UHGV virus genome: UHGV-0454263
DNA length: 24,473 nt
Reading direction: 5' to 3' (one strand)
Source of the DNA: a virus
Numbering within the stretch: the first letter of the stretch is position 1; each line of letters opens with the position of its first letter. The position numbers and the translations under genes are program-made. The notes below the pieces were generated by a model, which made no database searches, was not told the origin of the DNA, and saw nothing but the letters and a program-made list of their open reading frames with translations. Below, in pieces: positions 1,071 through 17,584 of the stretch.

Positions 1071-1160
1071 TTGTTACCCCTGTTTACTCGATGTTCAGCC
1101 CATCGGAAGGCAATAGGGTGCCAGGCCTCATAAAGACAGCCATTGCACGTTATTGGTTAA

Positions 1161-3377
1161 TTACTGCTGTGATTGTTGCTGGGTTGATTTTTGCAGGATG
1201 CTGCTGATGTCCATTCGTTGTGCATGGCCCTGTGCCTGACTTTTCAGGACAAGCTCTGCATCAGCACGGGCGTTATCTCCTTGCTGTTGCTGGAACTGTC
1301 CGAGCAGTTTCAGAGCCTCGCGGATATCAGATTTCTGCTGGCTATCGGCAGATGCGAGGATTTTCACAACATTTGCCGCAGCAACCTGAGCATCCGTCTG
1401 TGCCTGGAATGCTTTAACCTGAATAGCTGCCTGTTCGTTCTGCGCTTTCTGCAATTCAGCCTGACCAGCAAGAAGTTGACCTTGCGCTGCAACCATAGCC
1501 GGATCTGGCTGACTGGCCTGTTGTTGTTTCGCCTGTTCAACCATCTGCTGTTCTTCAGGCGTTCTCGGCTTGATAACGCCAGACAGAAGCAACTGATTGC
1601 GGTTGTATTCTTTAAGGTCGTCCATCCCTTCGCCGTCCATATTGTCGAGAATCATCGACGATACAAGGTCGTGCTTCTGCGTTCCTGGTGGGATAAGTGC
1701 CAGCATGGAAAGTAACGACTTAACCGTTGCATCACGACGAGTAGCGAACGACTGACCGACATCGACAGTCACTTCATAGTTGCCCTGCGAAAGGTCATTA
1801 AGCGCGATAACCTGCCCTGTCTGACGGTCAACCACTTCACCAGTCATCAGCGCCACGTCATCGCTGCCGTCCTCATTAACGATACGCATCGGCGTATCAC
1901 TGCCATAGACCTCACGCGCCATAGAAAGCCACACAACGCCAGCGCGACGCATGGATTTAGCCATGTTGTCCATGTAGATATAGGACTGCGTGTCCATCCG
2001 GTTAAAGATGCTATCAACGGTATCGGTGGCGACGTTGCTCGGCATGTTCTCAAGCTGCGACGCACCTGTAATTTGCTGAATAGCAGTTCCGGTGTACTGC
2101 AATAGCCCGGCAAGAGCAGGAGGCATTTGTGTTGTAGGTGTATAACTGCTGACCTGAGCCTGCGCAGTAATATCTCCGTTTTTGTTTTTCAGACTGACCA
2201 TCGGCAGGAACGCCGGGCGCTTTTTGTTGCGCTCCGCCCAATGAGTGGCGAGAGGACCAGGAATCATGTCAACATCAACTACAGGAATACCATCACCGCC
2301 AGCCTGAGTGGCGTTATCTGCAATCATGGAAACCATCAGGTTCTCAAGACGCTGTGCATCCATCGCTTTTGCTGCGTGGCCTTCGATTCGCTCCTGATTA
2401 TCAACAAATGAACGACGCCCATATACCGGGATGAGAGGAATATGTTCGCCCGGAATACGCTTCGGTTCTTCCAGCCATTCAGCGCCAGACAGAAGACCGC
2501 AATAAACTCGGCGTTTCTTCACTGTCCGCTCACCAATCAGTTCGAATGCGCCATCGGTCAGCTCGTCGACAATATCTTTGATTTGATCTTCATCATAGAT
2601 TGCCGTTTCTCCGCTAACAGGGTTACGCCATGCTGTGAGCTTCACCTTCTCTACGCGAACTTCGTAGTAGCGTCCAACATAGATGGCGTCAGGCGTTGAC
2701 CAGTCATACTGAGTACCAGTGTCATCACGAGAAAGGCTTGCCGCGATGGAATCAGGGTATTCAGCCTCGAACGCTTTAGGCGTCATGGAGAACATTTCCA
2801 TAGCCCACATAGCATCAGAGCGGTCATATTGCTTGCTGTCCTGATCGAAGAAAACGCATGTCGCTGGGTCGTAAACAGGAAGAAGGCTGATGCGTCGCTG
2901 CTCGTTACTTGGGTCCATTTCATCTTCGTAATCGGCACACATGCGGAAACAACCGAATCCGCCCGTTACAGCATCATCAAATGCGTTATCACACGCTTCG
3001 CCACCGGATGTTTCCTGATAGTCAGCGCGGAATTTGCCGTTCATCTTTTCGGCTAACGCTTCCGATGCCTTGTCATCCTTCGGCCTGAATTTAACGCTGA
3101 TGCGATTCTGTCGATACTCGCCAATGATGCGATCACATTCACGGGCAATCTTATTCAGTTCAAAGCGCGGGTAATGCTCAAACCTGCCTTCATCAAATGA
3201 GTAACCAGCGTTTGTGCTGCCTTCCCACTGTGCGCCGGACACCCGGACGAAACGTTGAGCCTCAATAATCTGCTCTCGCATATCCTGCGTTGCTGACCAG
3301 GCATTATCAAAGTTGCACAGCACCTTGCGATGCCAGTCAGTCATCTTTCTATCATCAGCCATCATCCAACTCCGCAA
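1161..3377 (-). CDS. Portal protein (P22 gp1-like)
   Basis: 738-aa ORF immediately downstream of large terminase with 16-nt overlap; size and Q-rich C-terminal tail typical of P22-like portals. Confidence 0.85.
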   Translation of the reverse strand: MRSWMMADDRKMTDWHRKVLCNFDNAWSATQDMREQIIEAQRFVRVSGAQWEGSTNAGYSFDEGRFEHYPRFELNKIARECDRIIGEYRQNRISVKFRPKDDKASEALAEKMNGKFRADYQETSGGEACDNAFDDAVTGGFGCFRMCADYEDEMDPSNEQRRISLLPVYDPATCVFFDQDSKQYDRSDAMWAMEMFSMTPKAFEAEYPDSIAASLSRDDTGTQYDWSTPDAIYVGRYYEVRVEKVKLTAWRNPVSGETAIYDEDQIKDIVDELTDGAFELIGERTVKKRRVYCGLLSGAEWLEEPKRIPGEHIPLIPVYGRRSFVDNQERIEGHAAKAMDAQRLENLMVSMIADNATQAGGDGIPVVDVDMIPGPLATHWAERNKKRPAFLPMVSLKNKNGDITAQAQVSSYTPTTQMPPALAGLLQYTGTAIQQITGASQLENMPSNVATDTVDSIFNRMDTQSYIYMDNMAKSMRRAGVVWLSMAREVYGSDTPMRIVNEDGSDDVALMTGEVVDRQTGQVIALNDLSQGNYEVTVDVGQSFATRRDATVKSLLSMLALIPPGTQKHDLVSSMILDNMDGEGMDDLKEYNRNQLLLSGVIKPRTPEEQQMVEQAKQQQASQPDPAMVAAQGQLLAGQAELQKAQNEQAAIQVKAFQAQTDAQVAAANVVKILASADSQQKSDIREALKLLGQFQQQQGDNARADAELVLKSQAQGHAQRMDISSILQKSTQQQSQQ

Positions 3378-4858
3378 GGTATGTTGTAGCTTGAGTAATC
3401 AATCTCTTTAGGATCTTTGATGTCTCGCATCTGTATTGCAAAACGCCTCATCATGTAGCCATAGCGAACAGCAGAAAGGATGTCGTCATTTAGCTTGACG
3501 ATCTTCCCGTTCTCATCGCGGTGATACAGGCGAAACTCTTCAAAGAATGGCTCGCAGGTGTTAAATACCTTGAAACGACCGTCGAGCATCATGTCGCGTA
3601 TCTCTGCTATCCCGGGTTCGACCGCATTACCTCCATCAGGCCATGTTGCATGATCTGGCAACATGTCGAACCCAGCGTCGGCGTATTGTTCCTTGAGCTG
3701 AGCGCCGCCTCCCTTTTCGTGCTGATGCCCGTCATGAGGCCAAGCCGTAGGGGTGTTTTTGCTCCATGCTTTAACAGCACTCCATGCCTCTGTCGCCTTC
3801 TTCTGTTTGGCCTTCCAGACGCGAGAAAGATAAATCACGTCCTCGTCTTTATCCCACCAAAGCTGGATATGTGCCTGTGGGTGATCCCATCCGAAGTCCA
3901 TTGCATTGATGACGTAGAAGTGATCAGGACACTCGAACGGCTGACACTTAATCGTCTCTTCCGGTATCTGGAAGATTCGACCGCTACCCATCGTAGGAAT
4001 ACCGCGAGCACGCGCCTCTCTCTCATGCTCAGGATAAGATGCGATGATTTGCTCTTTCTGCTCGTCGGTGTAGTGCTCAGCGTCATAGATGGTCATGTTG
4101 ACCACTTTCTGCGACTTGCTGGGATTCTTCAGGAACTTGGTAACAACGTCAGACATCCCCATCAGCGGGGTAAACGTCAGAATTGAGAATTGCCCGTATT
4201 TGTTGGTACGGGTAAGCCCTTCGCCATAAATGCTGTATGGTGGCTCTTCGTCAAACCACACGCCGTGGATTGTGTCACCCTGCCAGCGAGCGCGTCCTTG
4301 CGAGTATGGTTTGAAGTAGCAGATTGAAATGCCATCTTCAACGCCATCAGCCGTGTGATGCTTAACCAGAAGATGATCAACAAGGTTCGGAAAGAAAGGA
4401 GACTTCTTCCAGCTAATGATGTCTTCTTTCGGTATGGAACCGTAGCCTGGCTCGTCATTCTCTTCAATACGACCGCACAGGATGCGTTGAGTCGTTTTGG
4501 TTACAGTCTCGTTTGTCTCGCCGCCAATCCAGAAGACAACAGGCTCATAGAAACGCTTACCTTTCCACTCACCGCCATATTTACCATCAGCAGGATAGCC
4601 TTTTGTGCCCGGATAACGCCCGGTAAGGTGAAACGCGACTTCAGCAGCACCAGTAAATGACTTACCAAGCTGGTTACCAGCCATAAAACAGCGCTCTGGA
4701 TAGTCATGCCCGGCGTCGATGAACTCACGCTGTTTGCTGTATGGCGTAAATTCATATAGCAGGTGTGTGTTCCGGTAGTTCTCTTCTTCTTCGAGTAGCT
4801 CGAGCAACTCGATTTGCTCTTCGTCGCTCAGGTTATCAAGAATCGCGTCCAGTTCCAC
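3362..4858 (-). CDS. Terminase large subunit (P22 gp2-like)
   Basis: 498-aa ORF; size and position between small terminase and portal; overlaps the small terminase stop. Confidence 0.85.
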
Positions 4859-5330
4859 GGTTGAATAGCTCCTTGATACGAGAGCGTCGCTTATCGCGAT
4901 CTCCCTTATCAGGTGTCACGTCTTCAACTTGCGACTGCTCTTTGAGGCCCAAATCACGGGCGATGATGTTAGCGTTGAGAAGGTCAGCGGCTGCGCCAGA
5001 GAATTTCTGGTCGTAGATGATGTCTTCCGCTCGTGATGTGACGTCAGAAAAACCTTCCATTGACCGGAAGGTTCCCCATGTTTGCCTGGTGATATCAAGG
5101 AAGGTACACAATCCTGAAATAGTCATGGCTCGCATCTTAGGAAGATTAGCCTTAATTATTTCTCCCTGATATGAAAATACCTTACCCTCCCATAGCGGGT
5201 TATCATCAGCCCACTCGAAGTATTCACAACAAGCAGCCCACAGCGCCTCAGGCGATTCGAATTTAGGGTTTCGCCCATGACTACTGCGGGCCTCCCAGAA
5301 TCGGTTGCCCTTTGGTGCTGCCATATTCAT
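4836..5330 (-). CDS. Terminase small subunit (P22 gp3-like)
   Basis: 164-aa ORF ([31 protein letters not shown]...) immediately upstream of large terminase; start may be Met3. Confidence 0.7.
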
Positions 5331-5359
5331 CTCACTTAATCGTTATTTCAGGTTGAGCA

Positions 5360-5602
5360 TCATGCTCCGGTGGTGAACAGGTCTAACGCTTCCTTCGATT
5401 TACGCACCGCTTCGATAGTGCGGGTCGTGATATCTGAATTAGCGCCACCTGACTGGAAGTGAATTTTGAATAGCTCAAGCTTCAGCTCGTCAGTGCCAAT
5501 GAACTGAAATGCTTCTTCTGCGGCTGCGTTCTGGTTCATGACCAGCTTGTAAATCTCTAACTGGAATTTCTGTTCTTCAGTCATGGGAATAATCTCTGCC
5601 AT
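5360..5602 (-). CDS. Hypothetical small protein upstream of terminase
   Basis: 80-aa ORF in the late orientation; no motif recognised. Confidence 0.45.
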   Translation of the reverse strand: MAEIIPMTEEQKFQLEIYKLVMNQNAAAEEAFQFIGTDELKLELFKIHFQSGGANSDITTRTIEAVRKSKEALDLFTTGA

Positions 5603-5954
5603 TGTTGGCTCCGTTTATCCGTTAAAAGGGATATCAGTTAAGTTATCCCGTGTAGGGTATAAGTCATTGTCGAGACCACTCATTGAATGGTCTCTGCAAT
5701 AACCGATGTCTTTCCATCAGTCCGCCACCACAAAGAATCTTTTTTGCCATAAGGCAGGAGGTTCATCTTTCAGTGGCTGCCAGTGTTATTTCCCCACTTT
5801 CTGGCTTGGGTTGTTTCGCTGTATTGCCGCAACTGGTGGTGCACAGATTTAGTTAAATCTGTTCTCGCCTGAACTATCTTTTACATACCCGGATTGTGGG
5901 GATGTAAATCACGGTTTCATTATCAAGCCCACCCGTAGATGGGCTTTGGAATGG

Positions 5955-6212
5955 CTACTTCGCTTTTGCTTCCGCTCGCTTACGCCGGCGCTCTTCTTTC
6001 CTCTCGGCTTTTGCCATGTCCATGAATGCCTGCATGATCGAGTTCCGCATCATGTAGCTAACAAAGTGATGATTGACACAGCCGTTGAGGCGCAGCTGCT
6101 CGCCAAACTCATCCACCGAGGCCAATGCTTCCATCATGCCCTTCTCGCCTTTCATGAACTCTGAGAAGTCGCGCCCCGCTCTGGAGGCGCATTCAATAAC
6201 ACGATCACTCAT
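5955..6212 (-). CDS. Hypothetical protein with highly basic C-terminal tail, translationally coupled to the KilA-N gene
   Basis: 85-aa ORF; its ATG overlaps the stop of the upstream gene (ATGA at 6212..6209); C-terminus KAERKEERRRKRAEAKAK. Confidence 0.5.
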   Translation of the reverse strand: MSDRVIECASRAGRDFSEFMKGEKGMMEALASVDEFGEQLRLNGCVNHHFVSYMMRNSIMQAFMDMAKAERKEERRRKRAEAKAK

Positions 6213-6706
6213 CCCGGAAGCCCGGGGATCGTAATCTGCAGCTGGTTAGCCAGGGAGTTAATCTCAGCGACCAACACTGGCTTCGTATAGCGCCATGCTG
6301 CCAGCCCTTGTCCGCAGAAGCTCGCCATGTCTTTCTTCTGGTCAAACTCATGACATTTCATGTTGAGCTGCGCACTTAAGCTGTTGCGATGCTGAAGTTC
6401 TCCGGTGAAGTAGTCATCGAGGACTTTATAGGCCGCGTACTTGAACCCGGGGTTTAACCAAGCCGCATAATCGTAAGCAACAAACTTCCCGCCATATGTT
6501 CCACCGTGTACACCGCGCTCAGTAAAAACCACAGATTCGTGGTTTTTCTCCAGCTCGGCTAAGAACTCTTTGGTCTGCTTGTTTCGCAGGTAGTGGTAAG
6601 GCGATTCAGATTCACTTTTACCACTGGCTTTCCACATATCAGTGAGGCAGATCATGCCATCTTCACCGATACGAATTGGTTGATTGAAGAGGGTTAATGA
6701 TTTCAT
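6209..6706 (-). CDS. KilA-N domain protein
   Basis: 165-aa ORF; N-terminal region (IRIGEDGMICLTDMWKASGKSESESPYHYLRNKQTKEFLAEL) resembles KilA-N DNA-binding domains of phage antirepressor-type proteins. Confidence 0.55.
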   Translation of the reverse strand: MKSLTLFNQPIRIGEDGMICLTDMWKASGKSESESPYHYLRNKQTKEFLAELEKNHESVVFTERGVHGGTYGGKFVAYDYAAWLNPGFKYAAYKVLDDYFTGELQHRNSLSAQLNMKCHEFDQKKDMASFCGQGLAAWRYTKPVLVAEINSLANQLQITIPGLPG

Positions 6707-6821
6707 AGCGTGTACCTACTCTTTGAAATGAACCTTTGCCGCACAGGAAACCAGCCCACCGAGGCTCGCCAGCACTACCTGGTATCCTCAAAGGCCCATT
6801 CCAAAGGGGCAGGTTCGGTGT

Positions 6822-6880
6822 AAAAAACATGCGTTGCGGTACGCATTTATTGCAAAAAGCCCCGCATCGCGAGGCTCATT
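6822..6880 (-). terminator. Two tandem intrinsic-terminator-like hairpins downstream of Rz
   Basis: Minus-strand RNA: GCCUCGC-GAU-GCGGGGC followed by UUUUUGC, then UGCGU-accgca-ACGCA followed by UGUUUUUUA. Confidence 0.45.
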
Positions 6881-6907
6881 AAATTGACTTTGTGATTTGC
6901 AAAAAAA

Positions 6908-7345
6908 TTATTTCAGGCATTGCGTCCTGATGTATTCCTGCAGGTAGTTAACCTGCGCGGTTATCCTGTCGATTCCACTTCTGAGACGGTAATAATTGAG
7001 TTCAGCATCTGCTGTAAGTCTTGGGCTTTCTCCATCGCCCATGCTGCTGGCTCCGGTCGTTGACTTTGCACAGGTGGCGGCGACTTGCAGGCGCTTACGA
7101 CCAGCAGAAACATCAGCACGGAGACTTTCGATAGTCGCGTTAGCATCAGCAAGCTCCTTTGTGTATCTGGCGTCAAGTTCTGCTACATCACGTTGACGCT
7201 TCTGCATGTCAGCAATTGTGGATGCGGCCTTATCGCGCTGCTCTTTGTAGGCGATTGCGTTATCACGGTAATGATTAACAGCCCATGACAGGCAGACGAT
7301 GATGCAGATAACCAGAGCGGAGATAATCGCGGTTACTCTGCTCAT
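6908..7345 (-). CDS. Rz: Rz i-spanin
   Basis: 145-aa ORF with N-terminal transmembrane segment and coiled-coil periplasmic part; start overlaps R stop (ATGA); Rz1 embedded in +1 frame. Confidence 0.9.
6961..7146 (-). CDS. Rz1: Rz1 o-spanin (lipoprotein) embedded within Rz
   Basis: Embedded ORF with signal peptide and lipobox (LVVSAC) followed by a proline-rich stretch ([16 protein letters not shown]); start assigned to the internal Met giving [20 protein letters not shown]. Confidence 0.7.
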
Positions 7346-7818
7346 ACCTCAACCTCTCTGACCGTTCCGCCAGCCTCTTTGAATTTTGCAATCAGGCTGT
7401 CAGCCTTATGCTCGAACTGACCATAACCAGCCCCCGGCAGTGAAGCCCAGATATTGCTGCAACGGTCGATAGCCTGACGAATATCACCGCGATCAATCAT
7501 CGGTAAAGCGCCACGCTCTTTAATCTGCTGTAGTGCAACAGCGTCCTGGCTTTTCGGAGAGAAGTCTTTCAGGCCAAGCTGCTTACGATAGGCATCCCAC
7601 CAACGGGAAAGAAGCTGGTAACGCCCGGCGGCTGTTGATTTGAGTTTTGGGTTTAGCGTGACAAGTTTGCGAGGGTGATCAGAGTAATCAGTGAATAGCT
7701 CTCCGCCTACAATGACGTCATAACCATGATTTCTGGTTTTCTGCCGTCCGTTATCAGTTCCCTCCGACCACGCCAGCATATCGAGGAACGCCTTACGTTG
7801 ATTATTGATTTCCACCAT
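7342..7818 (-). CDS. R: Endolysin R, lambda-type lytic transglycosylase
   Basis: 158 aa, [39 protein letters not shown]... essentially identical to lambda R as I recall it. Confidence 0.95.
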
Positions 7819-8125
7819 CTTCTACTCCGGCTTTTTTAGCAGCGAAGCGTTTGATAAGCGAACCAATCGAGTCAGTACCGATGTAGCCGATGAACACGCT
7901 CGTTATATAAGCGAGGTTGCTACTTAGTCCGGCGAAGTCGAGAAGGTCACGAATGAACCAGGCGATAATGGCGCACATCGTTGCGTCGATTACTGTTTTT
8001 GTAAACGCACCGCCATTATATCTGCCGCGAAGGTACGCCATTGCAAACGCAAGGATTGCCCCGATGCCTTGTTCCTTTGCCGCGAGAATGGCGGCTAACA
8101 GGTCATGTTTTTCTGGCATCTTCAT
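7802..8125 (-). CDS. S: Holin S, lambda class I, with dual-start motif
   Basis: 107 aa, [36 protein letters not shown]... near-identical to lambda S; Met1-Lys2-Met3 dual start for antiholin/holin. Confidence 0.95.
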
Positions 8126-8521
8126 GTCTTACCCCCCAATAAGGGGATTTGCTCTATTTAATTAGGAATAAGGTCGATTACTGATAGAACAAATCCAGGC
8201 TACTGTGTTTAGTAATCAGATTTGTTCGTGACCGATATGCACGGGCAAAACGGCATGAGGTTGTTAGCGCAACCTCATGCCACCCGCGTTCACGAAGGTC
8301 ATGTGTAGAAGGCCGCAGCGTAACTATCACTGATGAATTCAGGATAGCCAGTGGCTACGGCTCAGTTTAGGTTGTGCTGTTGCTGGGCGGCGATGACGCC
8401 TGTACGCATTTGGTGATCCGGTTCTGCTTCCGGCATTCGCTTAATTCAGCACAACGATAAGAGCACTCGGTGCATTTAAGCCAAGCCCCATAAGGGAGAA
8501 TGCTCTTACCTGTTGCACAGA

Positions 8522-8583
8522 TATAAAAAATCCCGAAACCGTTATGCAGGCTCTAACTATTACCTGCGAACTGTTTCGGGATT
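8522..8583 (-). terminator. tR' intrinsic terminator ending the short pR' leader (6S RNA)
   Basis: Minus-strand AAUCCCGAAACAGUUCGCAGGUAAUAGUUAGAGCCUGCAUAACGGUUUCGGGAUUUUUUAUAU, matching lambda tR'. Confidence 0.75.
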
Positions 8584-8717
8584 GCATTTTGCAGACCTCT
8601 CAGCCTGCGATGGTTGGAGTTCCAGACGATACGTCGAAGTGACCAACTAGGCGGAATCGGTAGTAAGCGCCGCCTCTTTTTATCTCACTACCACAACGAG
8701 CGAATTAACCCATCGTT
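8522..8717 (-). ncRNA. pR' leader transcript (lambda 6S RNA equivalent), roughly 195 nt from pR' start to tR'
   Basis: Interval between the inferred pR' start (about 7 nt downstream of the -10) and the tR' U-tract; equals the known lambda 6S RNA arrangement. Confidence 0.5.
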
Positions 8718-8755
8718 GGGTCAAATTTACCCAACTTTATTCAAAAAGTCAATAT
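8700..8755 (-). promoter_or_regulatory. Late promoter pR' with Q-utilisation (qut) site
   Basis: Minus strand TTGACT (8752..8747), 17-bp spacer, TAAATT (8729..8724); surrounding sequence ...GGGTAAATTTGACCCAACGATGGGTTAATTCG... matches lambda pR'/qut immediately downstream of Q. Confidence 0.75.
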
Positions 8756-8794
8756 CATGCCGTTAATATGTTGCCATCCGTGGCAATCATGCTG

Positions 8795-9418
8795 CTAACG
8801 TGTGACCGCATTCAAGATATTGTCTGCGATTGACTCTTCCTTGTGGCATTGCACCACCAGAGCGTCATACAGCGGCTTAACAGTGCGTGACCAGGTGGGT
8901 TGAGTAAGGTTTGGGATTAGCATCGTTACAGCGCGATATGCGGCGCTTGCTGGCATCCTTGAATAGCCGACACCTTTGCATCTTCCGCACTCTTTCTCAA
9001 CAACTCTCCCCCACTGCTCTGTTTTTGCTATATCAACCGCGCGGCCTGTACCGTGGCAATCTCTGCATCTTGCCCCCGGCGTCGCGGCACTACGGCAATA
9101 ATCCGCATAAGCGAATGTTGCGAGCACTTGCAGTACCTTTGCCTTAGTATTTCCTTCAAGCTTTGCCACACCACGGTATTTCCCCGATACCTTGTGTGCA
9201 AATTGCATCAGATAGTTGATAGCCTTTTGTTTGTCGTTCTGGCTGAGTTCATGCTTACCGCAGAATGCAGCCATTCCGAATCCGGCTTGTGATTGCGCCA
9301 TCCCCATAGCAGCCATCACATCAGTACCGGAAAGAGAGTCAGAAGCCGTAGCCCGTGGTGAGTCGCTCATCATCGGGCTTTTTGGCGAATGAAATTTAGC
9401 TACGCTTTCGAGTCTCAT
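8795..9418 (-). CDS. Q: Late antiterminator Q (lambda-type)
   Basis: 207 aa, [48 protein letters not shown]... with Cys-rich zinc-binding region; near-identical to lambda Q. Confidence 0.95.
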
Positions 9419-10080
9419 GCGCCTTCTCCCTGTACCTGAATCAATGTGAGGTTTCCGCAGAACACTGCGCCGGTATCGATATACATCTGGTTGGCAAACT
9501 TGAGTGGTTTCACTGCTGGCGTATGACCAAAGATGAACGTGTCCGCGCCTTTGATTTCTTTCACGATCCCGTCTTGTGAGTTGCTGATTCGTTCGCGGTT
9601 CCAGATTACCTGCTGATGATCAACTGGCTTTCCAAACTCGTATTCGTCACAAGGATAATCGGCGTGGCAGATGACATATTTTTTATCTTTACTCACCAGT
9701 TCGATGATTAACGGAAGTTCATCTGCTTTATGGGCAAGAGCTTTAGCCAGAATTTCTTTGTCGTAATCGAGATTAAAGAACCAGCCACCGCCATTAAGCA
9801 GCCAGTGATTGACGTTTCCACGCTCTGATAAGCCATCAATCATCATGTGCTCATGGTTTCCACGTACAGCTCTGAACCAGGGGAATGTGATTAATTCCAG
9901 GCATTCAACGTTCTCTGCACCACGATCAACCAAATCGCCAACCGAGATAAGCAGGTCTTTTTTGGTGTCGAATCCAATCGTATCCAGTTTGTTCATCAGG
10001 TTCGTGTAGCATCCGTGCAGGTCGCCAGCTACCCAAATATTTCGGTATTTGCTGCCATCAATTCTTTCGTAGATATTCAT
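9415..10080 (-). CDS. Ser/Thr protein phosphatase (lambda orf221/NinI-type)
   Basis: 221 aa with metallophosphatase motifs GDLHG, GDLVDRG, GNHE; ATGA overlap with Q. Confidence 0.9.
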
Positions 10081-10688
10081 GCTGCCTCACTTCTGCTGTT
10101 TCGCAGATTTTTAAGTTTCTGCTGATACTCCGCCTTGATGGCCCTGCACTCTTCGACAGTCCAGCGATGGCGGTTATGGTTTGATTCGATTTCGTCTACT
10201 GCTTCCTGCCCGATCCGGTTAATCAGTTCGACGCGATACGGAACGAGATTTCCGCTTTTATGCTGGTTGCACACCACGCATTGCTTGTGAATATTGCGTT
10301 CATCAAATCGGAGTTGAGGTGCCGCAGCAGTTGTCCGGTAATGCCCGGCATCCCACTGAGCAGACGTGAGCGTTCCGCACGAGATACATGGTAAGTCGCG
10401 GTCTCTTTCTCTGATGAAGGCGTTTACGGCTTGTTGGGCTTGTTTAATCCAGTAACTGCGGGGCTTTAAGGCGAGTTTTCGAATCTTAAGTTTATCTTTC
10501 TGTTTCTGCTCCTCTCGTCGTCGTTTCTTCTCTGCTGCTTTTTCCGCTTTTTCGCGTTCTTTGCTTCGTCGTTCGAGTGCTATCTTTGTTCCACTCTCTG
10601 GAGAGCACCACCACTGATTAGCGAATGCAGGGTGAAACCATTCCCGACATTCTTCGTTTTTACATCGTCTTCGCGCTGGTTTAGCCAT
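10077..10688 (-). CDS. ninG: NinG (Rap) recombination protein
   Basis: 203 aa, [31 protein letters not shown]... Cys-rich N-terminus, matches lambda NinG. Confidence 0.9.
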
Positions 10689-10851
10689 CGTATTCTTCCT
10701 CGTACATTGAGCTATTCGGATCGCTCATCAGTTCTGCGCAGCAGTACTCACACACGTGAACTTCCAGCACATGCAGCTTCTGACCGCAATTAGCGCACGT
10801 TAAAGCCCGCTCGACGCTTTCTTGTTCGTAACTTCGATTTGGGTCAATCAC
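10681..10851 (-). CDS. ninF: NinF
   Basis: ...[38 protein letters not shown]... matches lambda NinF; start assigned to GTG at 10851..10849 (GTGA overlap with NinE stop) rather than the upstream ATG at 10893 that would overlap NinE by 46 nt. Confidence 0.7.
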
Positions 10852-11030
10852 CTTGTATTCCTCGCACGATGTCTTAGCCACCGGATATCCCACAGGTGAG
10901 CCGTGTAGTTGAAGGTTTTTACGTCAGATTCTTTTGGGATTGGCTTGCGTTTATTTCTGGAGCGTTTCGTTGAAAGGTATTTGCAGTTTTCGCAGATTAT
11001 GTCGGTAATACTTCGTCGCTGTCGTCTCAT
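10848..11030 (-). CDS. ninE: NinE
   Basis: 60 aa, [52 protein letters not shown]... matches lambda NinE. Confidence 0.85.
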
Positions 11031-11565
11031 GCCGCCCTCCTGACGCCCTCCTGACGCCCTGCCCGATCGCCATCAATGCCGCTTTGGATACGGTAGTAAA
11101 CATCCGTCGAGGACTGATGAACGGTCGCCAAATCAGCAGCATTGAGCCTTTGCTGTTTCCCTTCTTCTCCAGCCCTGTCGATGGTTCGATAAAATTAATC
11201 CGTCCATCAGTGATGATGCGAACTTCGTCAACACTCTCCAGAGCCTTGCTGAGCCATCCGACAGACATATCCTCTGGCACAAGCATCACTACCGTCTGTC
11301 GTTGTTGTATGCACTGCTCAGCGGCTTTTTCCACCCACGGCCTGATATTGCTGTACGGTGGGTTATTCCAGATTGCACCGTGGCTTACCCACTCAGAATT
11401 GAGCGCGTCGTCGGCCTCAGTTAGCCAGTGAGCACACAGAGCATTTTTGTCGCTCGCTGCCGAATCCAGCCAGAATCCAAACTCAATATCCAGTGCATCA
11501 AAAAGCCAAAGCGGCGTTTGCCAGCAGTCCTTGTCGTGTGCTGGCGTATTTGATTTGATAGTCAT
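10951..11565 (-). CDS. Phage N6-adenine DNA methyltransferase (Dam family) with apparently frameshifted C-terminal extension
   Basis: [26 protein letters not shown]... with NPPY catalytic motif; ATG overlaps NinB stop (ATGA at 11565..11562). The 3' end runs 80 nt into ninE in another frame after an 11-bp tandem duplication at 11034..11055. Confidence 0.7.
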
Positions 11566-12008
11566 GCAGCCTTCCCTTTTCGTTGTGACCATTCATACTC
11601 TCGCCGGGAGTCATCACTCCATCGCACGTTGCGCTCTGAGCCGAACCAGAACATGATTTCGATAAGCTCAGTCATGCTGGCCTTTCGCATTTTGCTGGTA
11701 CGCACGCCAAGCATGACAACGCCACCATCGATACCAGGCACACTTCGTTGCTCCAGTTTTTTGGTCTTAAGCCACAGGGCAGTGAACAGGTCTTTCCAGT
11801 CTTCCGGCGCCAGCCGTTGACCATGCCATAGCACCTGACGCGAAACATCGTTCAGCATCGGCCACATACGGTCATTCTGCGCTTTGCTGCGTTTGGGTTC
11901 TCTAACGTGGACTTCATGAGGTGACTTGTCGTCGATGGGAAGTGAGAGTATTGCGTCTATGGCGTTATTTCTGATTGCTTCGTTGCGAAGCATGTATATT
12001 TGCTTCAT
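11562..12008 (-). CDS. ninB: NinB (Orf) recombination mediator
   Basis: 148 aa; conserved ...SRQVLWHGQRL... and C-terminal ...RNVRWSDDSRREYEW... resemble lambda NinB. Confidence 0.8.
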   Translation of the reverse strand: MKQIYMLRNEAIRNNAIDAILSLPIDDKSPHEVHVREPKRSKAQNDRMWPMLNDVSRQVLWHGQRLAPEDWKDLFTALWLKTKKLEQRSVPGIDGGVVMLGVRTSKMRKASMTELIEIMFWFGSERNVRWSDDSRREYEWSQRKGKAA

Positions 12009-12015
12009 CGTTACC

Positions 12016-12222
12016 TCAACTCACAAAACGCCACGCCACTTTTGCTACGACAACAGGCATAACACCGATAATCACCCACAGGAAAATGCTACCGAAAAGC
12101 ACACCCACCAGGTCTTTACCTTCGCCTACCAACCGGACAAAACTGCTGGCAACAACAATGAACGTCGCCACCATCCACATAGCACCGAGAATCCTCAATG
12201 CAGAGAAAATTAACTCAGCCAC
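12016..12222 (-). CDS. Small hydrophobic protein with two predicted transmembrane helices
   Basis: 68-aa ORF MAELIFSALRILGAMWMVATFIVVASSFVRLVGEGKDLVGVLFGSIFLWVIIGVMPVVVAKVAWRFVS; two hydrophobic stretches separated by a short charged loop. Confidence 0.4.
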   Translation of the reverse strand: MAELIFSALRILGAMWMVATFIVVASSFVRLVGEGKDLVGVLFGSIFLWVIIGVMPVVVAKVAWRFVS

Positions 12223-12242
12223 GATTTACCCTCCCCCAAATA

Positions 12243-12267
12243 AAAAGGCCTGCGATTACCAGCAGGC
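12243..12267. terminator. Bidirectional intrinsic-terminator-like hairpin
   Basis: AAAAAGGCCTGC-gattacca-GCAGGCCTTTATCTTTTTTT: GC-rich stem flanked by an A-run upstream and T-run downstream, so it reads as a terminator on both strands; sits directly after the HNH gene. Confidence 0.5.
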
Positions 12268-12269
12268 CT

Positions 12270-12881
12270 TTATCTTTTTTTAACACGCTTTCGAGTCCTT
12301 TTAGATTTTTCCTTAAGATATTCCGCAAGTTTATCCTCATCATTATTAAATTGAGATAAAAGCTCATGCTCGCAATTAAGTGCTTTACTCGCATAAGTTC
12401 CATATAGTTTCTTTCTTGCTAGTGCTGCTATGAATGCTGCATCTTCTTTGCTATCGAAATACCCTAACGATATTGTCTTATTTTTATAACCAACATAAGA
12501 CTTCCACCTGCCAGTTGTCTTATCCCAAGACACTCCAATCGCACCGGATGTGTTTAACCTATTCCCTACAATGTTTCTTGCATTCTGCTCCTCTGTTGCC
12601 AGTCTTAGATTTGAAATCCTATTGTCAAGTCTGTTCCCATTTACATGATCAATAAACTTAGGAGGCCATTTTTTGTATACATAGAACCAAGCAAGTCTAT
12701 GCGCATAATACAAAACATTATTTATGCTAATGCATATATAACCACCACTAACACCTCCAGCAATACTACCTTTTACTCTTACTACTGAATTTGTTTTTAG
12801 CCATTTAAATATTCCTGTTTCTGAGTCATATGATAATGTTGACAGAAGCTCATCGTGATCAATTAGTTTTTTTATTCGCAT
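12270..12881 (-). CDS. HNH homing endonuclease with AP2-type DNA-binding domain
   Basis: 203 aa; HNH motif ...AHRLAWFYVYKKWPPKFIDHVNGNRLDNRISNLRLATEEQNARN... followed by AP2-like ...GVSWDKTTGRWKSYVGYKNKTISLGYFDSKEDAAFIAALARKKLYG; markedly AT-rich relative to flanks. Confidence 0.8.
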   Translation of the reverse strand: MRIKKLIDHDELLSTLSYDSETGIFKWLKTNSVVRVKGSIAGGVSGGYICISINNVLYYAHRLAWFYVYKKWPPKFIDHVNGNRLDNRISNLRLATEEQNARNIVGNRLNTSGAIGVSWDKTTGRWKSYVGYKNKTISLGYFDSKEDAAFIAALARKKLYGTYASKALNCEHELLSQFNNDEDKLAEYLKEKSKRTRKRVKKR

Positions 12882-12959
12882 AAAGAATATACTTAATAAT
12901 ATATACAGTAAGAACCATTAGTAACGATAACCCTGCTATCAGCTCAGTGATGTAGATGG

Positions 12960-13229
12960 TCATTGCTTCATCTCCCTTTCCATTTCATCAATGTCAACGT
13001 CATCAGGAAGATGGGAGCAATACGCCGCTATACCATGATGATTTATCTCATACCCTTTGAACGTTACCATCTGGCGCGTAATCTCAACTTCGTTCAGGAA
13101 TCCGTCATCGCATAACTGCCTGGCTATTTTCGATTTGGTCTGGATTATTGGTAGTGCCTGTTCTTTCAAAGCGCATGATATTTGTGCATCCCATGCCTTT
13201 TCGAGAATGGCTAATTGTTTTTTATTCAT
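12960..13229 (-). CDS. Hypothetical protein
   Basis: 89-aa ORF; its ATG overlaps the helicase stop (TGATG); no motif recognised. Confidence 0.5.
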   Translation of the reverse strand: MNKKQLAILEKAWDAQISCALKEQALPIIQTKSKIARQLCDDGFLNEVEITRQMVTFKGYEINHHGIAAYCSHLPDDVDIDEMEREMKQ

Positions 13230-14665
13230 CAGAATCCTCCTTTCTTCTTGGACTGCGGTTCCTCGCGTTCACGTCGGCGCATTTCAGCAGACTGTTGGTC
13301 TGTGTCATAAATAGCGCCATTTGCCTGAATGCAATACACCGTGCCGGTATTGCCATGACGATTGAGGCGAAGGATTAGTTCGGTTTCACCAGGTGGAACA
13401 CTGTCATCAAAAGCACCTTCACGATGGATCCCCACCCAATAATCGCAATCCTGTTCAATCTGCCCTGTATCTCGTGAGTCACTTGGTAATGGGCGTTTAT
13501 TGGTTCGGCTTTCCAATGCGCGGTTAAGCTGTGTCAGAAGCACAACAACGCAATCAAGCTCTTTGGCAAGGTTCTTCAGTCCTTTGGTGATCATGCCGTA
13601 AGCAAGGTCGTTGCGATCGGCCTTCTCAGCAGTCATTAGTGTCAGGTAATCGACCAGAATCATGCCAACACATCCTTTTTCTCGCTTGATTCGACGGCTT
13701 TCGCTGACGATTTGAGCCAGAGATAATCCCGGCGTGTCGTCGATGTAAAGCAGGTCGATTTCACTCAAGCGATTGGCTGTTTCGATCGCCCTGTTGAAGT
13801 CACCATCGTAATCACCCTGATAGCCGTCATCAGCGTCATTTGTCGCCGGAAGGTAAAAAATATTCGGGTTAATACCTGACTTCTGCCCTACCAGTTTTTC
13901 CAGTATCTGATCACCTGGCATTTCAAGGCTGAACATCAGAGCGGGCTTTTTCTCATGCACTGCGCAATTGATTGCCATCTGGCTGTATAGCGTCGTTTTC
14001 CCCATCTTAGGGCGAGCACCAATGACAAACAGAGAGCCTTTCACCAGACCTTTCGGTGACAGCATCCTGTCCAGCGATGGGATCCCTGTGCTCATTCCCC
14101 GTTGTTCTCCTGATGGGTCAAATCGCTTCTCAAGGTCGCTAACCCAGTCTTCCATGACCTCACCAAATGAACGAAGGCCGCGACGCGATCCGGTTTTTGC
14201 ATGGTCTGTCAGTTGCGTGAAAATCGACTGAATAGCTTCGTACTTCTGCGTCGCAGTCATTCCGTTGCGGGAATAGAGCAATTCCGTCGCTTCAGTCATG
14301 CGGTTGATGGCGTAGCGTTCCATTGCGGTTTCACGAACCTGCATTGCATAGGCAACGATGTTTGCTGCGCTTGGCGTGTTCTTTGCGATCTCAGCGATAT
14401 AAGCAAAACCGCCAACAGACACCGTTAACGATTTACGCTCCAGTTCATCGAAAAGCGTCAGGCCATCTACTGGCTTTTGCTCCCGGTGCATTCTGGTTAT
14501 CTCTTCGAAAAGGATTTTGTGTGGTCGGCTGTAAAATGAATCGGGCTTCAGCATCGCCAGAACTTTCTGGACGCGCTCACTGCTGTCATCATCCAGAAGC
14601 AATCCACCAATCACCGCCTGCTCTGCCTCGATGCTATGGGGCGGCGCATAAAAATTATCGGTCAT
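13229..14665 (-). CDS. Replicative DNA helicase, DnaB family (P22 gp12-like)
   Basis: Walker A GARPKMGKTT, DnaB-like N-terminal domain (SIEAEQAVIGGLLLD); start assigned to ATG at 14665 preceded by GAGGGTG. Confidence 0.9.
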   Translation of the reverse strand: MTDNFYAPPHSIEAEQAVIGGLLLDDDSSERVQKVLAMLKPDSFYSRPHKILFEEITRMHREQKPVDGLTLFDELERKSLTVSVGGFAYIAEIAKNTPSAANIVAYAMQVRETAMERYAINRMTEATELLYSRNGMTATQKYEAIQSIFTQLTDHAKTGSRRGLRSFGEVMEDWVSDLEKRFDPSGEQRGMSTGIPSLDRMLSPKGLVKGSLFVIGARPKMGKTTLYSQMAINCAVHEKKPALMFSLEMPGDQILEKLVGQKSGINPNIFYLPATNDADDGYQGDYDGDFNRAIETANRLSEIDLLYIDDTPGLSLAQIVSESRRIKREKGCVGMILVDYLTLMTAEKADRNDLAYGMITKGLKNLAKELDCVVVLLTQLNRALESRTNKRPLPSDSRDTGQIEQDCDYWVGIHREGAFDDSVPPGETELILRLNRHGNTGTVYCIQANGAIYDTDQQSAEMRRREREEPQSKKKGGF

Positions 14666-15554
14666 CGTGTTCACCCTCACGAACTTTCAGGTAGGTATTG
14701 TCGTTAAGCAGGAAATCAAATCCCTTTTTGTGCCAGACGGTTCCGCGTTGATGGTTTGGGCGTTCTTCGAACATCCATCGGCAATTTTCGCCTACGTAGC
14801 TCAAATAATTTCTCCAGTCCTGCATCGTGAACCCATGCCCGTCAAGCTGGCGGGTTATCACTCCGGCTTTGCGCCAGAACGTTCGGATCTGGTTTTTACG
14901 CTTGTCATTCAGTGCGCGGATTCTTGGCGCTTCAGGAAGGATTTCGTGGTAAGCATCGACAACATCCTGACAGCTGACGGAAGGTTTTTTCTTGTCAGAC
15001 TTTTTGTCTGCTGTGGCACTCTCTAATACGTCAGTATTAGAGATAATATTATTATATTCTTTATCTGTGGTAATTTGCTGGTAATCTGCTGGTACAGTAT
15101 TGCTTGCAGGCATTGGTATTGCTGGCTTTGAGGTGGTAATTTGCTGGTAATCTGCTGGTACAAAATTTGACTGATAATCGTCATATTTCTCTACCGAGAA
15201 AACTGAGAATTTACCGTGTGAAACCCAGTCAATCATGCCGAGTTTTTTGAACTTTCTAAGCAGGTACTGAACGCGATCTGGTTTGAGTCCTGTTTCAAAC
15301 GCCAGAGAGTTTCTACCGCCAAGTAGCTTACCTCTGCCTACCAGAATTTCTCCTGCGTCAGTCATTACATACTCAGGCGTATGCTTTGCTTTGAGGATTA
15401 AGTGAACCCACAGATGCGCAGCTTCTGCGTCCTTGTAAAACGGCACATCCATAATTTTACGGTGCAGCAAGGCATACCCCTTACCGCTGCTTTGATGCGG
15501 TTGTTGTAGCCTTCTGGCCTCTCTGGCTTCGGCTAGATTAGATATGTTACTCAT
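14655..15554 (-). CDS. Replication initiation protein (lambda O / P22 gp18 functional analogue)
   Basis: 299 aa; internal peptide repeat [10 protein letters not shown] x2 encoded by DNA iterons; position between cII and helicase. Confidence 0.75.
15035..15165. repeat. Origin of replication: iterons plus AT-rich tract inside the initiator gene
   Basis: 29-bp unit TGGTAATTTGCTGGTAATCTGCTGGTACA at 15068..15096 and 15134..15162, built from 11-bp sub-repeats TGGTAATNTGC; further GGTATTGCTGG copies between; adjacent AT-rich tract AGATAATATTATTATATTCTTTATC. Confidence 0.6.
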
Positions 15555-15693
15555 GACCTTTCTCCTTCTGCATCAGCTTCACTTTTTCCAACTCAGCCCG
15601 GAATCGACCAGGCTGCTTGAAGCTGGACAGGAAGCGATCACGTAGTATGTGTTTGTGAATTTTGTCCTGGTAAGGACTGAGTTGTTTTGTCAT
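15547..15693 (-). CDS. Small ORF between cII and the initiator gene (P22 orf48-like position)
   Basis: 48 codons ([48 protein letters not shown]); stop overlaps the initiator ATG (ATGAGTAA); below the ORF-track length cut-off. Confidence 0.4.
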
Positions 15694-15725
15694 AATTACT
15701 CCTGTGGATTGATCCAGTAATTCCC

Positions 15726-16022
15726 TCAGAATTGCATATCAATTTGCTTAAAATCCTCGGTGGCAGCCGGGGATTTTTTCTTTGTGATTTCATCAAGCGC
15801 ATACTTAAAAGCCCTGCTAATCGGACTGATGTCTGATGCCATTCCGAAAGCACACAAGACCGAAGCAATAAATCTCCAGTCCGTTCTGCTTATCTTCGAT
15901 TCATGACAGCCAATCATCTTTGCCAGACCGCGCTGGGTAAGCGTTGACAGGTTGATAAGTAAATCTGTTTCAGCGCGATCAACGTCACGCTGTGATAGTT
16001 TGCTGTAACTTGTTTGTTCCAT
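15726..16022 (-). CDS. cII: CII-like transcriptional activator
   Basis: 98 aa; HTH and C-terminus ...[20 protein letters not shown] resemble lambda CII (...TNKKRPAATERSEQIQMEF). Confidence 0.8.
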
Positions 16023-16097
16023 TTCTTAAGATTTCCAGTAGTGAATAGTTAGTTGAAAGGTATGCGTGGAAACGCATATGGCCTTAGTTGGTCAGAT

Positions 16098-16153
16098 ATC
16101 TTGGAACTCGCTTTTCAGCGACGTAGGACGAATGTCCGTTGTTACAAAGAGCG
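16098..16153 (-). promoter_or_regulatory. nutR (boxA plus boxB hairpin)
   Basis: Minus strand CGCTCTTTG (boxA-like), 23-nt spacer, TCGCT-GAAAA-AGCGA (boxB-like stem-loop); between cro and cII. Confidence 0.5.
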
Positions 16154-16160
16154 GGGTTAC

Positions 16161-16394
16161 TTATGCTGCTGATGCTCTACGCGATACGAACACCAGATTT
16201 TCCTTTTTCACAGGTTTATAACCCGTGAAATTACGAGTGGCTTCTTCGATTGCATTCGCTTTATCTGGGGAAGCTCTTCGAAACCCATATGCAATCTGAT
16301 CAAGATAGCCAACTGAAGTATTCGCTAATGCGGCGAGTCGCTTCCATTCCTCACTAGAAGCCTCTTTTCGCCAGCGTAGTAGTTCATTACTCAT
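16161..16394 (-). CDS. cro: Cro-like HTH repressor
   Basis: 77-aa ORF divergent from cI with predicted helix-turn-helix (LAALANTSVGYLDQIAYGFRR); first gene of the rightward operon. Confidence 0.65.
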   Translation of the reverse strand: MSNELLRWRKEASSEEWKRLAALANTSVGYLDQIAYGFRRASPDKANAIEEATRNFTGYKPVKKENLVFVSRRASAA

Positions 16395-16507
16395 TAGTGC
16401 CTCCGTTTATCACACAGAGTAACTTTACCATTTTGATAAATCAACTGCAATAAAGATTTATCAAAATGCGTATTTATCCATTTGCTAAATAGAGGGAGAA
16501 TCGTGGG
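16395..16507. promoter_or_regulatory. OR operator region with divergent pR and pRM
   Basis: 13-bp inverted repeat ATTTTGATAAATC / GATTTATCAAAAT plus further TTTATC half-sites; candidate pR on minus strand TTGCAG-17-TAAAGT (16450..16422); cI RBS GAGGGAGA upstream of ATG 16508. Confidence 0.6.
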
Positions 16508-17212
16508 ATGGAAAACAAAGATATTCGCAAATCGAATCTGGCGTTTTTGCTAGACGAGCATAAAAAAATCGCGGGTAACACTAATGCAAGCTTTGCCGAT
16601 AAGCTTGGAGTTAGCCCTTCTCAACTCACGCAAGTCTCCGGTGAAAAAAGCACTCGAAACATAGGGGATAAACTAGCAAGAAAATTCGAAGCCGCACTTG
16701 GGTTACCTAATGGGTGGCTTGATTTGGTACATGATGTAACACCAATTGCATCATGCTCAGATTCTTTAACTTTTGTCGGTCAGGTAAGAAAAGGGTTAGT
16801 GCGCGTGGTTGGTGAGGCAATTCTTGGTGTTGATGGTGCCATCGAGATGACCGAAGAGCGCGATGGGTGGCTCAAGATTTATAGCGATGATCCAGATGCC
16901 TTTGGTCTTCGTGTGAAAGGAGACAGCATGTGGCCCAGAATAAAATCAGGAGAATATGTACTCATTGAGCCTAACACCAAAGTATTCCCGGGGGATGAGG
17001 TGTTTGTCAGAACTGTTGAAGGACACAACATGATCAAAGTTCTTGGCTATGACAGAGACGGAGAATACCAATTTACAAGCATCAACCAAGATCATAGGCC
17101 AATAACGTTGCCTTATCATCAAGTAGCAAAGGTGGAGTATGTAGCTGGTATTCTGAAGCAATCTCGCCATCTGGATGACATCGAGGCAAGGGAGTGGCTG
17201 AAAAGTTCGTGA
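16508..17212 (+). CDS. cI: CI repressor (HTH N-terminal domain, S24 LexA-like autocleavage domain)
   Basis: 234 aa; N-terminal HTH; C-terminal S24 peptidase motif GDSMWPRIKSGEYVLIEP with Ser-Lys dyad. Confidence 0.9.
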   Translation: MENKDIRKSNLAFLLDEHKKIAGNTNASFADKLGVSPSQLTQVSGEKSTRNIGDKLARKFEAALGLPNGWLDLVHDVTPIASCSDSLTFVGQVRKGLVRVVGEAILGVDGAIEMTEERDGWLKIYSDDPDAFGLRVKGDSMWPRIKSGEYVLIEPNTKVFPGDEVFVRTVEGHNMIKVLGYDRDGEYQFTSINQDHRPITLPYHQVAKVEYVAGILKQSRHLDDIEAREWLKSS

Positions 17213-17315
17213 CTTCATCGTCACATAGCTGGTAACCAGTGGCCTGAAGAGACGTTTGGGTGATGAAACCACTTTTATCTACAATTTACAGGGCGGTAAA
17301 CATTGGCAAAAATAG

Positions 17316-17584
17316 ATGATTATCAGCCAAGCCAAGTAGAAGTTGATAAAGTACTTTATTGTAAAAAAATAGNNNNNNNNNNNNNNNNNNNNNNNNNNNN
17401 NNNNNNNNNNNNNNNNNNNNNNNNNNNNNNNNNNNNNNNNNNNNNNNNNNNNNNNNNNNNNNNNNNNNNNNNGATTATCAGCCAAGCCAAGTAGAAGTTG
17501 ATAAAGTACTTTATTGTAAAAAAATAGATGATTATCAGCCAAGCCAAGTAGAAGTTGATAAAGTACTTTATTGTAAAAAAATAG
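17316..17584 (+). repeat. Perfect 57-bp tandem repeat array (at least 3 copies) interrupted by an assembly gap
   Basis: Unit ATGATTATCAGCCAAGCCAAGTAGAAGTTGATAAAGTACTTTATTGTAAAAAAATAG at 17316..17372, partial copy 17473..17527, full copy 17528..17584; the run of exactly 100 N (17373..17472) lies inside the array. Confidence 0.9.
17373..17472. other. Assembly gap (100 N) of unknown true length
   Basis: Exactly 100 consecutive N, flanked on both sides by the same 57-bp repeat. Confidence 0.95.

Follow-up and report, generated by a model that had tools for sequence, protein, structure and literature searches.

Why does the dam gene of a P22-like E. coli prophage run 80 nt into ninE, when in related prophages the two genes meet at an ATGA stop/start overlap? 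The locus lies in UHGV virus genome UHGV-0454263, a 24,473-nt stretch referred to here in its entirety as the window, and the nin genes described below are all read from its minus strand. We give a probability of about 0.7 to the following answer: a real, derived 11-bp duplication polymorphism arose by slippage in the nin region of P22-like E. coli prophages, its protein tail is tolerated, the coupling between the two genes is lost, and the allele is nearly neutral. The last point follows from the dispensability of the lambdoid nin region, as known from the lambda nin5 deletion.

The dam gene (11565..10951) encodes a phage N-6-adenine-methyltransferase (Pfam PF05869, TIGR01712) of 204 codons, followed by a TAA stop at 10953..10951. 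Residues 1–174 are native and residues 175–204 form a 30-residue frameshift tail. Downstream, ninE (10848..11030; 60 codons plus stop; Pfam PF05322, E = 3.3e-42) retains its own ATG at 11030..11028 and is read in the +1 frame relative to dam; its product (P0016) is identical to a protein that NCBI records list for E. coli under the name ‘NinE family protein’. The two genes overlap by 80 nt (10951..11030), a stretch in which the extended dam frame crosses the ninE start and codons 1–26 of ninE. The open reading frame coordinates thus agree with an earlier sequence-only reading, in which the Dam frame was said to run about 30 codons further and to overlap ninE by 80 nt in another frame. Upstream of dam lies ninB (11562..12008; Pfam PF05772), whose TGA overlaps the dam ATG in an ATGA, as that reading had also noted when it likened the ancestral dam/ninE junction to ninB/dam. 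Strong Pfam matches on the same strand identify ninF, ninG (10688..10077), and a NinI-like phosphatase gene (10080..9415). In the window, as in the related loci L003 and L005, ninH is missing and ninG meets the phosphatase gene directly (ATGA, 10077–10080); most sister prophages (L008, L009, L010, L019, and L020 were compared) carry a 68-aa NinH between them.

Direct reading of the minus strand places a perfect two-copy tandem, GGCGTCAGGAG GGCGTCAGGAG, at 11058..11037. In the register of the sequence-only reading, copy 1 occupies 11058..11048 and copy 2 occupies 11047..11037. The order on this strand is ...GATCGGGC AG GGCGTCAGGAG GGCGTCAGGAG GGCGGC ATGA..., and within 11027–11066 the letters GGGC AG precede the first GGCGTCAGGAG. 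Tandem Repeats Finder likewise recovers the perfect 11-bp duplication that had been claimed, and extends it to 11033..11060 (period 11, 2.5 copies, 100% matches), where the whole 28-nt array reads AGGGCGTCAGG AGGGCGTCAGG AGGGCG. A chance origin is unlikely, as only two of 300 first-order Markov simulations of the window, run without its N run, contained any perfect two-copy tandem repeat with a period of 11–30. The array also bears on translation signals. The putative ninE Shine-Dalgarno sequence, AGGAGG (11036..11041), whose role we assign from the consensus, lies 5 nt upstream of the ATG, and the duplication creates a second AGGAGG (11052..11047) 11 nt upstream of the first. The former dam stop, a TGA at 11027..11029 within the ATGA overlap and the point at which dam ends in one-copy relatives, is now out of frame. 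Removing one copy restores a 175-aa Dam that ends in GQGVRRAA and whose TGA shares its TG with the ninE ATG; here translation and annotated relatives both bear out the earlier reconstruction.

Sequence comparison indicates that the window gene is a member of the PF05869/TIGR01712 family of phage N-6-adenine-methyltransferases. Its product matches PF05869 with E = 1.5e-63 and 213.9 bits (cut-off 28.1; residues 4–169, model positions 1–167 of 169) and the equivalog model TIGR01712 with E = 1.1e-78 and 262.5 bits (cut-off 97.05; residues 2–168, model positions 1–165 of 165). These spans cover the NPPY tetrad of catalytic motif IV of N6-adenine methyltransferases (residues 68–71, codons at 11353..11364), which is invariant across 32 aligned homologues, and they uphold the claim that the catalytic core is intact. 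The window Dam keeps 174 of the 175 native residues, and its terminal Ala175 gives way to a basic tail, with a computed pI of about 10, read from an alternative frame of ninE. Conservation among the 32 homologues ends near G168, and both family models end at residue 168–169. Beyond this point the family is variable: the last residues may be AA, VA, AE, SA, or YE, natural C-termini give lengths of 169–191 aa, and more distant members have 8–16 extra residues. At 204 aa the window Dam falls outside the typical pattern of 169–191 aa with a stop at the start of the next gene, so that its layout departs from the family and its predicted fold does not. In a search for other proteins carrying the tail, the query matched through its Dam half only.

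Structure prediction gives a similar picture. The AlphaFold2 model has a core of alternating strands and helices with pLDDT of 75–95, and residues 177–204 are almost all below 50. The best matches among solved structures, CAPAM, CamA, and E. coli Dam, are all N6-adenine or adenosine methyltransferases, with TM scores of only 0.3–0.5 and E near 1e-3; no solved structure related by sequence to the window Dam was found, and its family lacks one. The cap-specific mRNA adenosine methyltransferases CAPAM/PCIF1 (TM about 0.5) rank ahead of the DNA enzymes CamA and Dam. Because the methyltransferase fold and active site appear untouched, the enzyme probably still works, carrying a floppy tail. A separate substitution bears on this expectation. 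Codon 105 is CTC (Leu; 11251..11253) in the window, and the aligned residue is Phe in 31 of 32 sequences, that is, in all but the window's own. Leu at this nearly invariant position marks the window's dam haplotype and could mean that the enzyme was already compromised.

The consequences for ninE are of a different kind. The dam stop now lies 80 nt inside ninE and the ATGA overlap is lost, so termination–reinitiation at the ninE ATG would no longer be possible. The ninE Shine-Dalgarno sequence is retained and duplicated, and ninE would be initiated from this strong ribosome-binding site of its own while ribosomes translating dam traverse its start. With ninE started independently and dam ribosomes running through, NinE output is probably altered and most likely lowered. 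RNA folding offers no structural argument for changed ninE translation, as the mean unpaired probability of the ninE start is barely different between the alleles (0.41 against 0.32). On both strands, searches of the junction turned up neither a promoter-like excess nor a terminator, and no Rfam family matched. Elsewhere in the operon the window keeps its coupled overlaps, namely ninB/dam (ATGA), ninE/ninF (GTGA), and ninG/phosphatase (ATGA); dam/ninE is such an ATGA pair in one-copy relatives, whereas in the window it is not.

Comparison with relatives indicates which state is ancestral. A 761-nt query across the region had matches in 418 phage records and in 2,169 of the 5,426 complete E. 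coli genomes, where they fell at 3,579 places; the best matches, phage and E. coli alike, all span 11 nt fewer. The one-copy state occurs in all 253 matching phage records. The sequence-only reading had proposed aligning the junction with related prophages. In our alignments mEp213 and VT2-Sakai are one-copy and the window differs from each by a clean 11-nt insertion, as it does from the one-copy locus L026. The dam gene has 175 codons (528 nt) and a stop overlapping the ninE start in mEp213, VT2-Sakai, and E. coli PK13, ERP001, and JX21CE33; in mEp213 the submitter's start lies 27 nt further upstream and the stop is unchanged. We also built a strict 43-nt two-copy query on which megablast cannot seed from one-copy DNA. 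It matched just one of the 5,426 complete E. coli genomes (YPE10) and none of 50,697 phage records. An exact 32-nt two-copy pattern was absent from GTDB species representatives, IMG/VR, and JGI metagenomes; unlike these scans, an exact-protein index did bring the two-copy allele to the surface. Since the relatives carry one copy, the duplication is the derived state, as the earlier suggestion of a derived frameshift had it.

A 15-billion-protein collection contains the exact 204-aa Dam, with 44 contigs listed for it and index entries in 71 blocks (NCBI, ENA, and Logan). At 16 further loci that we fetched, ten through the 204-aa Dam and six through the identical NinE, and which come from about 15 other assemblies, the 718-nt dam–ninE segment is identical to that of the window. 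One of the 16 is probably not independent: L005, a 17,372-nt contig of ERZ807448, matches window positions 951..17372 with 100% identity and stops just where the window's N gap begins, and is therefore probably the window's own source. The other two-copy loci come from different assemblers and sources (SPAdes NODE, MEGAHIT k141, Logan, and NCBI genomes). Judged by their gene tables, the two-copy loci sit in at least seven mosaic P22-like prophage contexts, which vary in the replication module (DnaB-type or RepO/Toprim-type), in the downstream gene (ninG or an HNH gene), in the presence or absence of ninH, and in which of three kinds of Q antiterminator they carry. Their late genes are P22-like (gp3, terminase, and P22 portal). 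Given the exact protein in 71 blocks and the identical 718-nt segment at 16 further loci, we take the two-copy allele to be real and inherited and consider sequencing error, which the sequence-only reading had left as an option, excluded by the occurrence of the same allele in independent assemblies. That reading had also named an observation that would speak against a derived frameshift: related phages with the same two copies and a conserved extended C-terminus. Two-copy relatives do exist, but the tail is not conserved among them in any informative sense, because nearly all two-copy loci owe the allele to common descent, diverged protein clusters lack the tail, and conservation ends near residue 168.

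The window itself is a scaffold with a 100-N gap (17373–17472), near a 185-aa gene upstream of a cI-like repressor. Directly after the gap, at 17473–17584, a 57-nt unit occurs twice perfectly, and the 3′ part of the same unit ends the contig before the gap. With the unit on both sides, the assembly evidently broke inside a real 57-nt tandem repeat; L003 spans this region without a gap.

How often has the copy number changed? The one-copy protein that we reconstructed from the window exists in nature (P0031, on 19 contigs), and junction-anchored pairwise alignment reveals prophages that differ by the indel alone. The one-copy locus L031 and the two-copy locus L009 otherwise agree at every position for 2,588 nt upstream and 10,010 nt downstream, as do the one-copy L026 and two-copy L020 for 2,972 and 3,189 nt. 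The two pairs represent separate backgrounds, with substitutions between them at −2458 to −2309 and from +2901 onward, and both copy states occur on each. In YPE10 the duplication lies on a different dam haplotype, which has Phe105, differs by ten substitutions, of which the closest to the array lies 85 nt upstream of it, and is joined to a ninE allele that differs from the window's from +12 onward. The YPE10 204-aa protein is found on three contigs, and a Phe105 version of the window-type two-copy protein on one. The closest one-copy loci (L017, L021, and L022) have Phe105, and residue 105 (F or L) and copy number (one or two) occur in every one of their four combinations. By contrast with YPE10, hypothetical two-copy proteins of five other haplotypes (VT2-Sakai, mEp213, and three more) are absent from the 15 billion proteins. 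Because the twins differ by the indel alone and YPE10 provides a second haplotype, these sequences indicate that copy number has changed more than once or has travelled on very short recombination tracts. On the latter reading, the exchanged tract would have been no longer than about 120 nt in YPE10 and no longer than 5 kb in the twins. Short tandem duplications revert readily by slippage, and in view of this known instability we favor recurrence, including reversion, over recombination.

The anatomy of the one-copy junction suggests how the duplication arose. Even the ancestral sequence, AGGGCGTCAGG-AGGGCGGCATG-AG, has the form of an imperfect 11-nt repeat (AGGGCGTCAGG / AGGGCGGCATG), and the window array therefore amounts to three copies in register, two of them perfect. 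Within the ancestral junction the 6-nt sequence AGGGCG recurs exactly at an 11-nt spacing, which to judge from its sequence is a classic substrate for replication slippage; slippage between these direct repeats would add one 11-nt unit. After that the allele would have survived, passed between mosaic prophage backgrounds, and been acquired or lost on more than one occasion.

Other changes cluster at or near the same place. A +1 G allele (CAGGAGGGGCGGCATG; GGG to GGGG) occurs at the junction in L034:1985-2065 and L035:1985-2065, on two replication-module backgrounds, and puts dam in the ninE frame to give a 233-aa Dam–NinE fusion (P0046, in a cluster of 41 sequences). In P0067 (235 aa, E. coli O55:H7) the NinE frame is reached through an earlier frameshift in dam. 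In E. coli CFSAN061770 (L015:1120-2030) a gene of the phosphoadenosine-phosphosulfate-reductase (PAPS-reductase) family has been inserted precisely at the dam/ninE boundary and overlaps both neighbors by a stop/start ATGA; this record also has a frameshifted ninB. That a duplication, a +1 G fusion allele, and an inserted gene share one short G-rich junction shows that it is a soft spot of the nin operon. A different set of repeats lies elsewhere in the window: inside a 299-aa replication-initiator-like gene, 11-nt direct repeats (ATCTGCTGGTA) form two clusters, one of about 3 copies at 15063–15094 and one of about 2.5 at 15134–15160. By analogy with lambdoid O genes these clusters are probably origin iterons.

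Several other explanations deserve weighing against slippage with a tolerated tail. The extra 11 nt might be absent from the real DNA and have entered during sequencing or assembly, an idea to which the draft state of the gapped window and the absence of the two-copy pattern from three large contig collections lend some color. We nevertheless find it scarcely conceivable, in that the identical allele recurs at the 16 further loci from different assemblies and assemblers and the same duplication is present on a second haplotype in a complete genome (YPE10); moreover, the 28-nt array is shorter than the k-mers that assemblers typically use and should neither collapse nor expand. A more serious contender accepts the allele and disputes its history: the duplication may have arisen only once, with the one-copy twins and YPE10 produced by homologous recombination among mosaic prophages. 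Recombination is certainly active at the locus, with one breakpoint inside ninB (L006) and another at the dam/ninE junction (L032), and the differences between the two twin backgrounds are clustered like imported patches. The window-type two-copy loci all lie on one 718-nt haplotype, and the five haplotypes for which no two-copy protein was found include the VT2-Sakai type common to many matching Stx-phage records. YPE10, however, would have needed both crossovers to fall inside about 117 nt, with one no more than 11 nt from the array, and the four combinations at residue 105 and the ready reversion of short tandem duplications also sit awkwardly with one event. We regard a single origin as possible but doubtful.

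A further pair of alternatives concerns what the allele does. It may be a step in prophage decay of an unneeded gene, in which the tail destabilizes or inactivates Dam and read-through suppresses NinE. PGAP/RefSeq marks dam of YPE10 as a pseudogene, NCBI-derived gene tables list no Dam product at two-copy loci, the window haplotype has Leu at the nearly invariant Phe105, and further frameshift alleles are found at the junction or close to it. Yet all invariant columns and the complete family-model span are kept along with the 174 native residues, the family naturally tolerates C-terminal extensions of 8–16 residues, the early, lysis, and head gene sets of the prophages around it look complete, and the allele has reached many backgrounds; pseudogenization thus seems unlikely to us. 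At the opposite extreme, the repeat could be an adaptive switch of the contingency type, toggling the Dam tail, NinE coupling, or a Dam–NinE fusion. Both copy states do occur on identical backgrounds, the repeat unit contains the ninE ribosome-binding site, and a third copy would give the in-frame Dam–NinE fusion that +1 G gives in nature. The arrays, on the other hand, never hold more than one or two perfect copies and the three-copy Dam–NinE fusion protein is absent from the 15 billion proteins; two-copy loci are rare and nearly all of one haplotype, the tail is conserved in no diverged relative, and nin genes are dispensable in lambda. An adaptive role is accordingly very improbable. Equally speculative is the conjecture that phage populations exploit this G-rich, slippage-prone repeat to vary methyltransferase or NinE output among three configurations, which would be coupled genes (one copy), a tailed Dam with uncoupled ninE (two copies), and a Dam–NinE fusion (a third copy or +1 G). 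In a related variant, tandem rare AGG AGG codons, which are present, would allow a +1 ribosomal shift into the tail frame in one-copy phages, and the duplication would hard-wire a minor natural isoform made in this way. A search for a programmed frameshift site returned no X XXY YYZ heptamer in the array, no Rfam match, and no other protein cluster with the tail.

We therefore return to a duplication that probably arose by slippage and is probably nearly neutral, an ordinary polymorphism in an accessory prophage gene that reveals no new mechanism. Its persistence in prophages does not prove phage viability. Beyond the sequence-only reading, our analysis adds the presence of both states on otherwise identical prophages, a second haplotype with the duplication, and a separate +1 G fusion allele. 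There is also a practical consequence for annotation. At two-copy loci, Prodigal-type calls keep the 204-aa Dam and omit ninE and ninF, whereas NCBI-type calls keep ninE and ninF and give no Dam product (gene tables of L003–L012 against L018–L025), and RefSeq treats the YPE10 dam as an incomplete pseudogene. Comparative tallies of phage methyltransferases and nin genes will therefore depend on the pipeline used. As a marker, the 11-nt indel is handy for following a recombining P22-like prophage lineage of E. coli, and the allele is a small natural experiment on the uncoupling of an ATGA-coupled gene pair.

Among known enzymes, the window Dam is closest in kind to the phage family that includes the product of VT2-Sakai orf32 (VT-2 Dam) and HP1 Dam; it has the full-length family match, the NPPY motif, and the usual position between ninB and ninE. 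The VT2-Sakai gene is 98% identical to the window dam at the DNA level (14 substitutions in 707 nt, indel apart). The window protein differs from the VT-2 type in having 204 rather than 175 residues, a tail in place of the terminal Ala, no ATGA overlap, and Leu for Phe105. According to work by Radlinska and Bujnicki in 2001, the VT-2 enzyme reportedly methylates adenine in GATC. VT-2 and HP1 are listed among the phages with cloned Dam-like genes, and the life-cycle role of phage Dam enzymes is described as not well understood (PMC7556043). A putative Dam of phage Phi24B is expressed in lysogen cultures (PMC3342100); we do not equate its CDS CM2 with the nin-region gene. M.EcoPA8orf6770P, an MT-A70 enzyme of an Stx-phage prophage, has a DPPW motif, needs a partner protein, and prefers 16S rRNA (PMC10810198). 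Like the window Dam it is prophage-encoded and annotated as a DNA adenine methyltransferase, and its phages are among our matches. We considered it as homologous evidence and set it aside, as it is a different gene (gp5) of a different family (MT-A70, DPPW) (PMC10810198).

At the level of the DNA, the closest parallels are slipped-strand contingency loci and the fusion alleles of the same junction. As in contingency loci, the window's repeat unit is flanked by pre-existing direct repeats, its gain causes a frameshift, and both states are found on otherwise identical genomes, the twin pairs differing in repeat number across 6–12 kb of identity. Unlike contingency loci, which have a range of repeat numbers and long arrays, this repeat occurs as one or two perfect copies only and the two-copy state is rare in the population. 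Nor does it switch a gene on or off: the whole conserved domain stays in frame, and the shift alters the protein from the last native codon, 175, onward. The Dam–NinE fusion alleles (P0046 and P0067) resemble the window in having a frameshift at or upstream of the junction, an intact methyltransferase core, and a changed relation to ninE. They differ in outcome, as the fusion alleles enter the ninE frame and yield a fusion protein, whereas the 11-bp duplication of the window enters the third frame and yields an unrelated tail.
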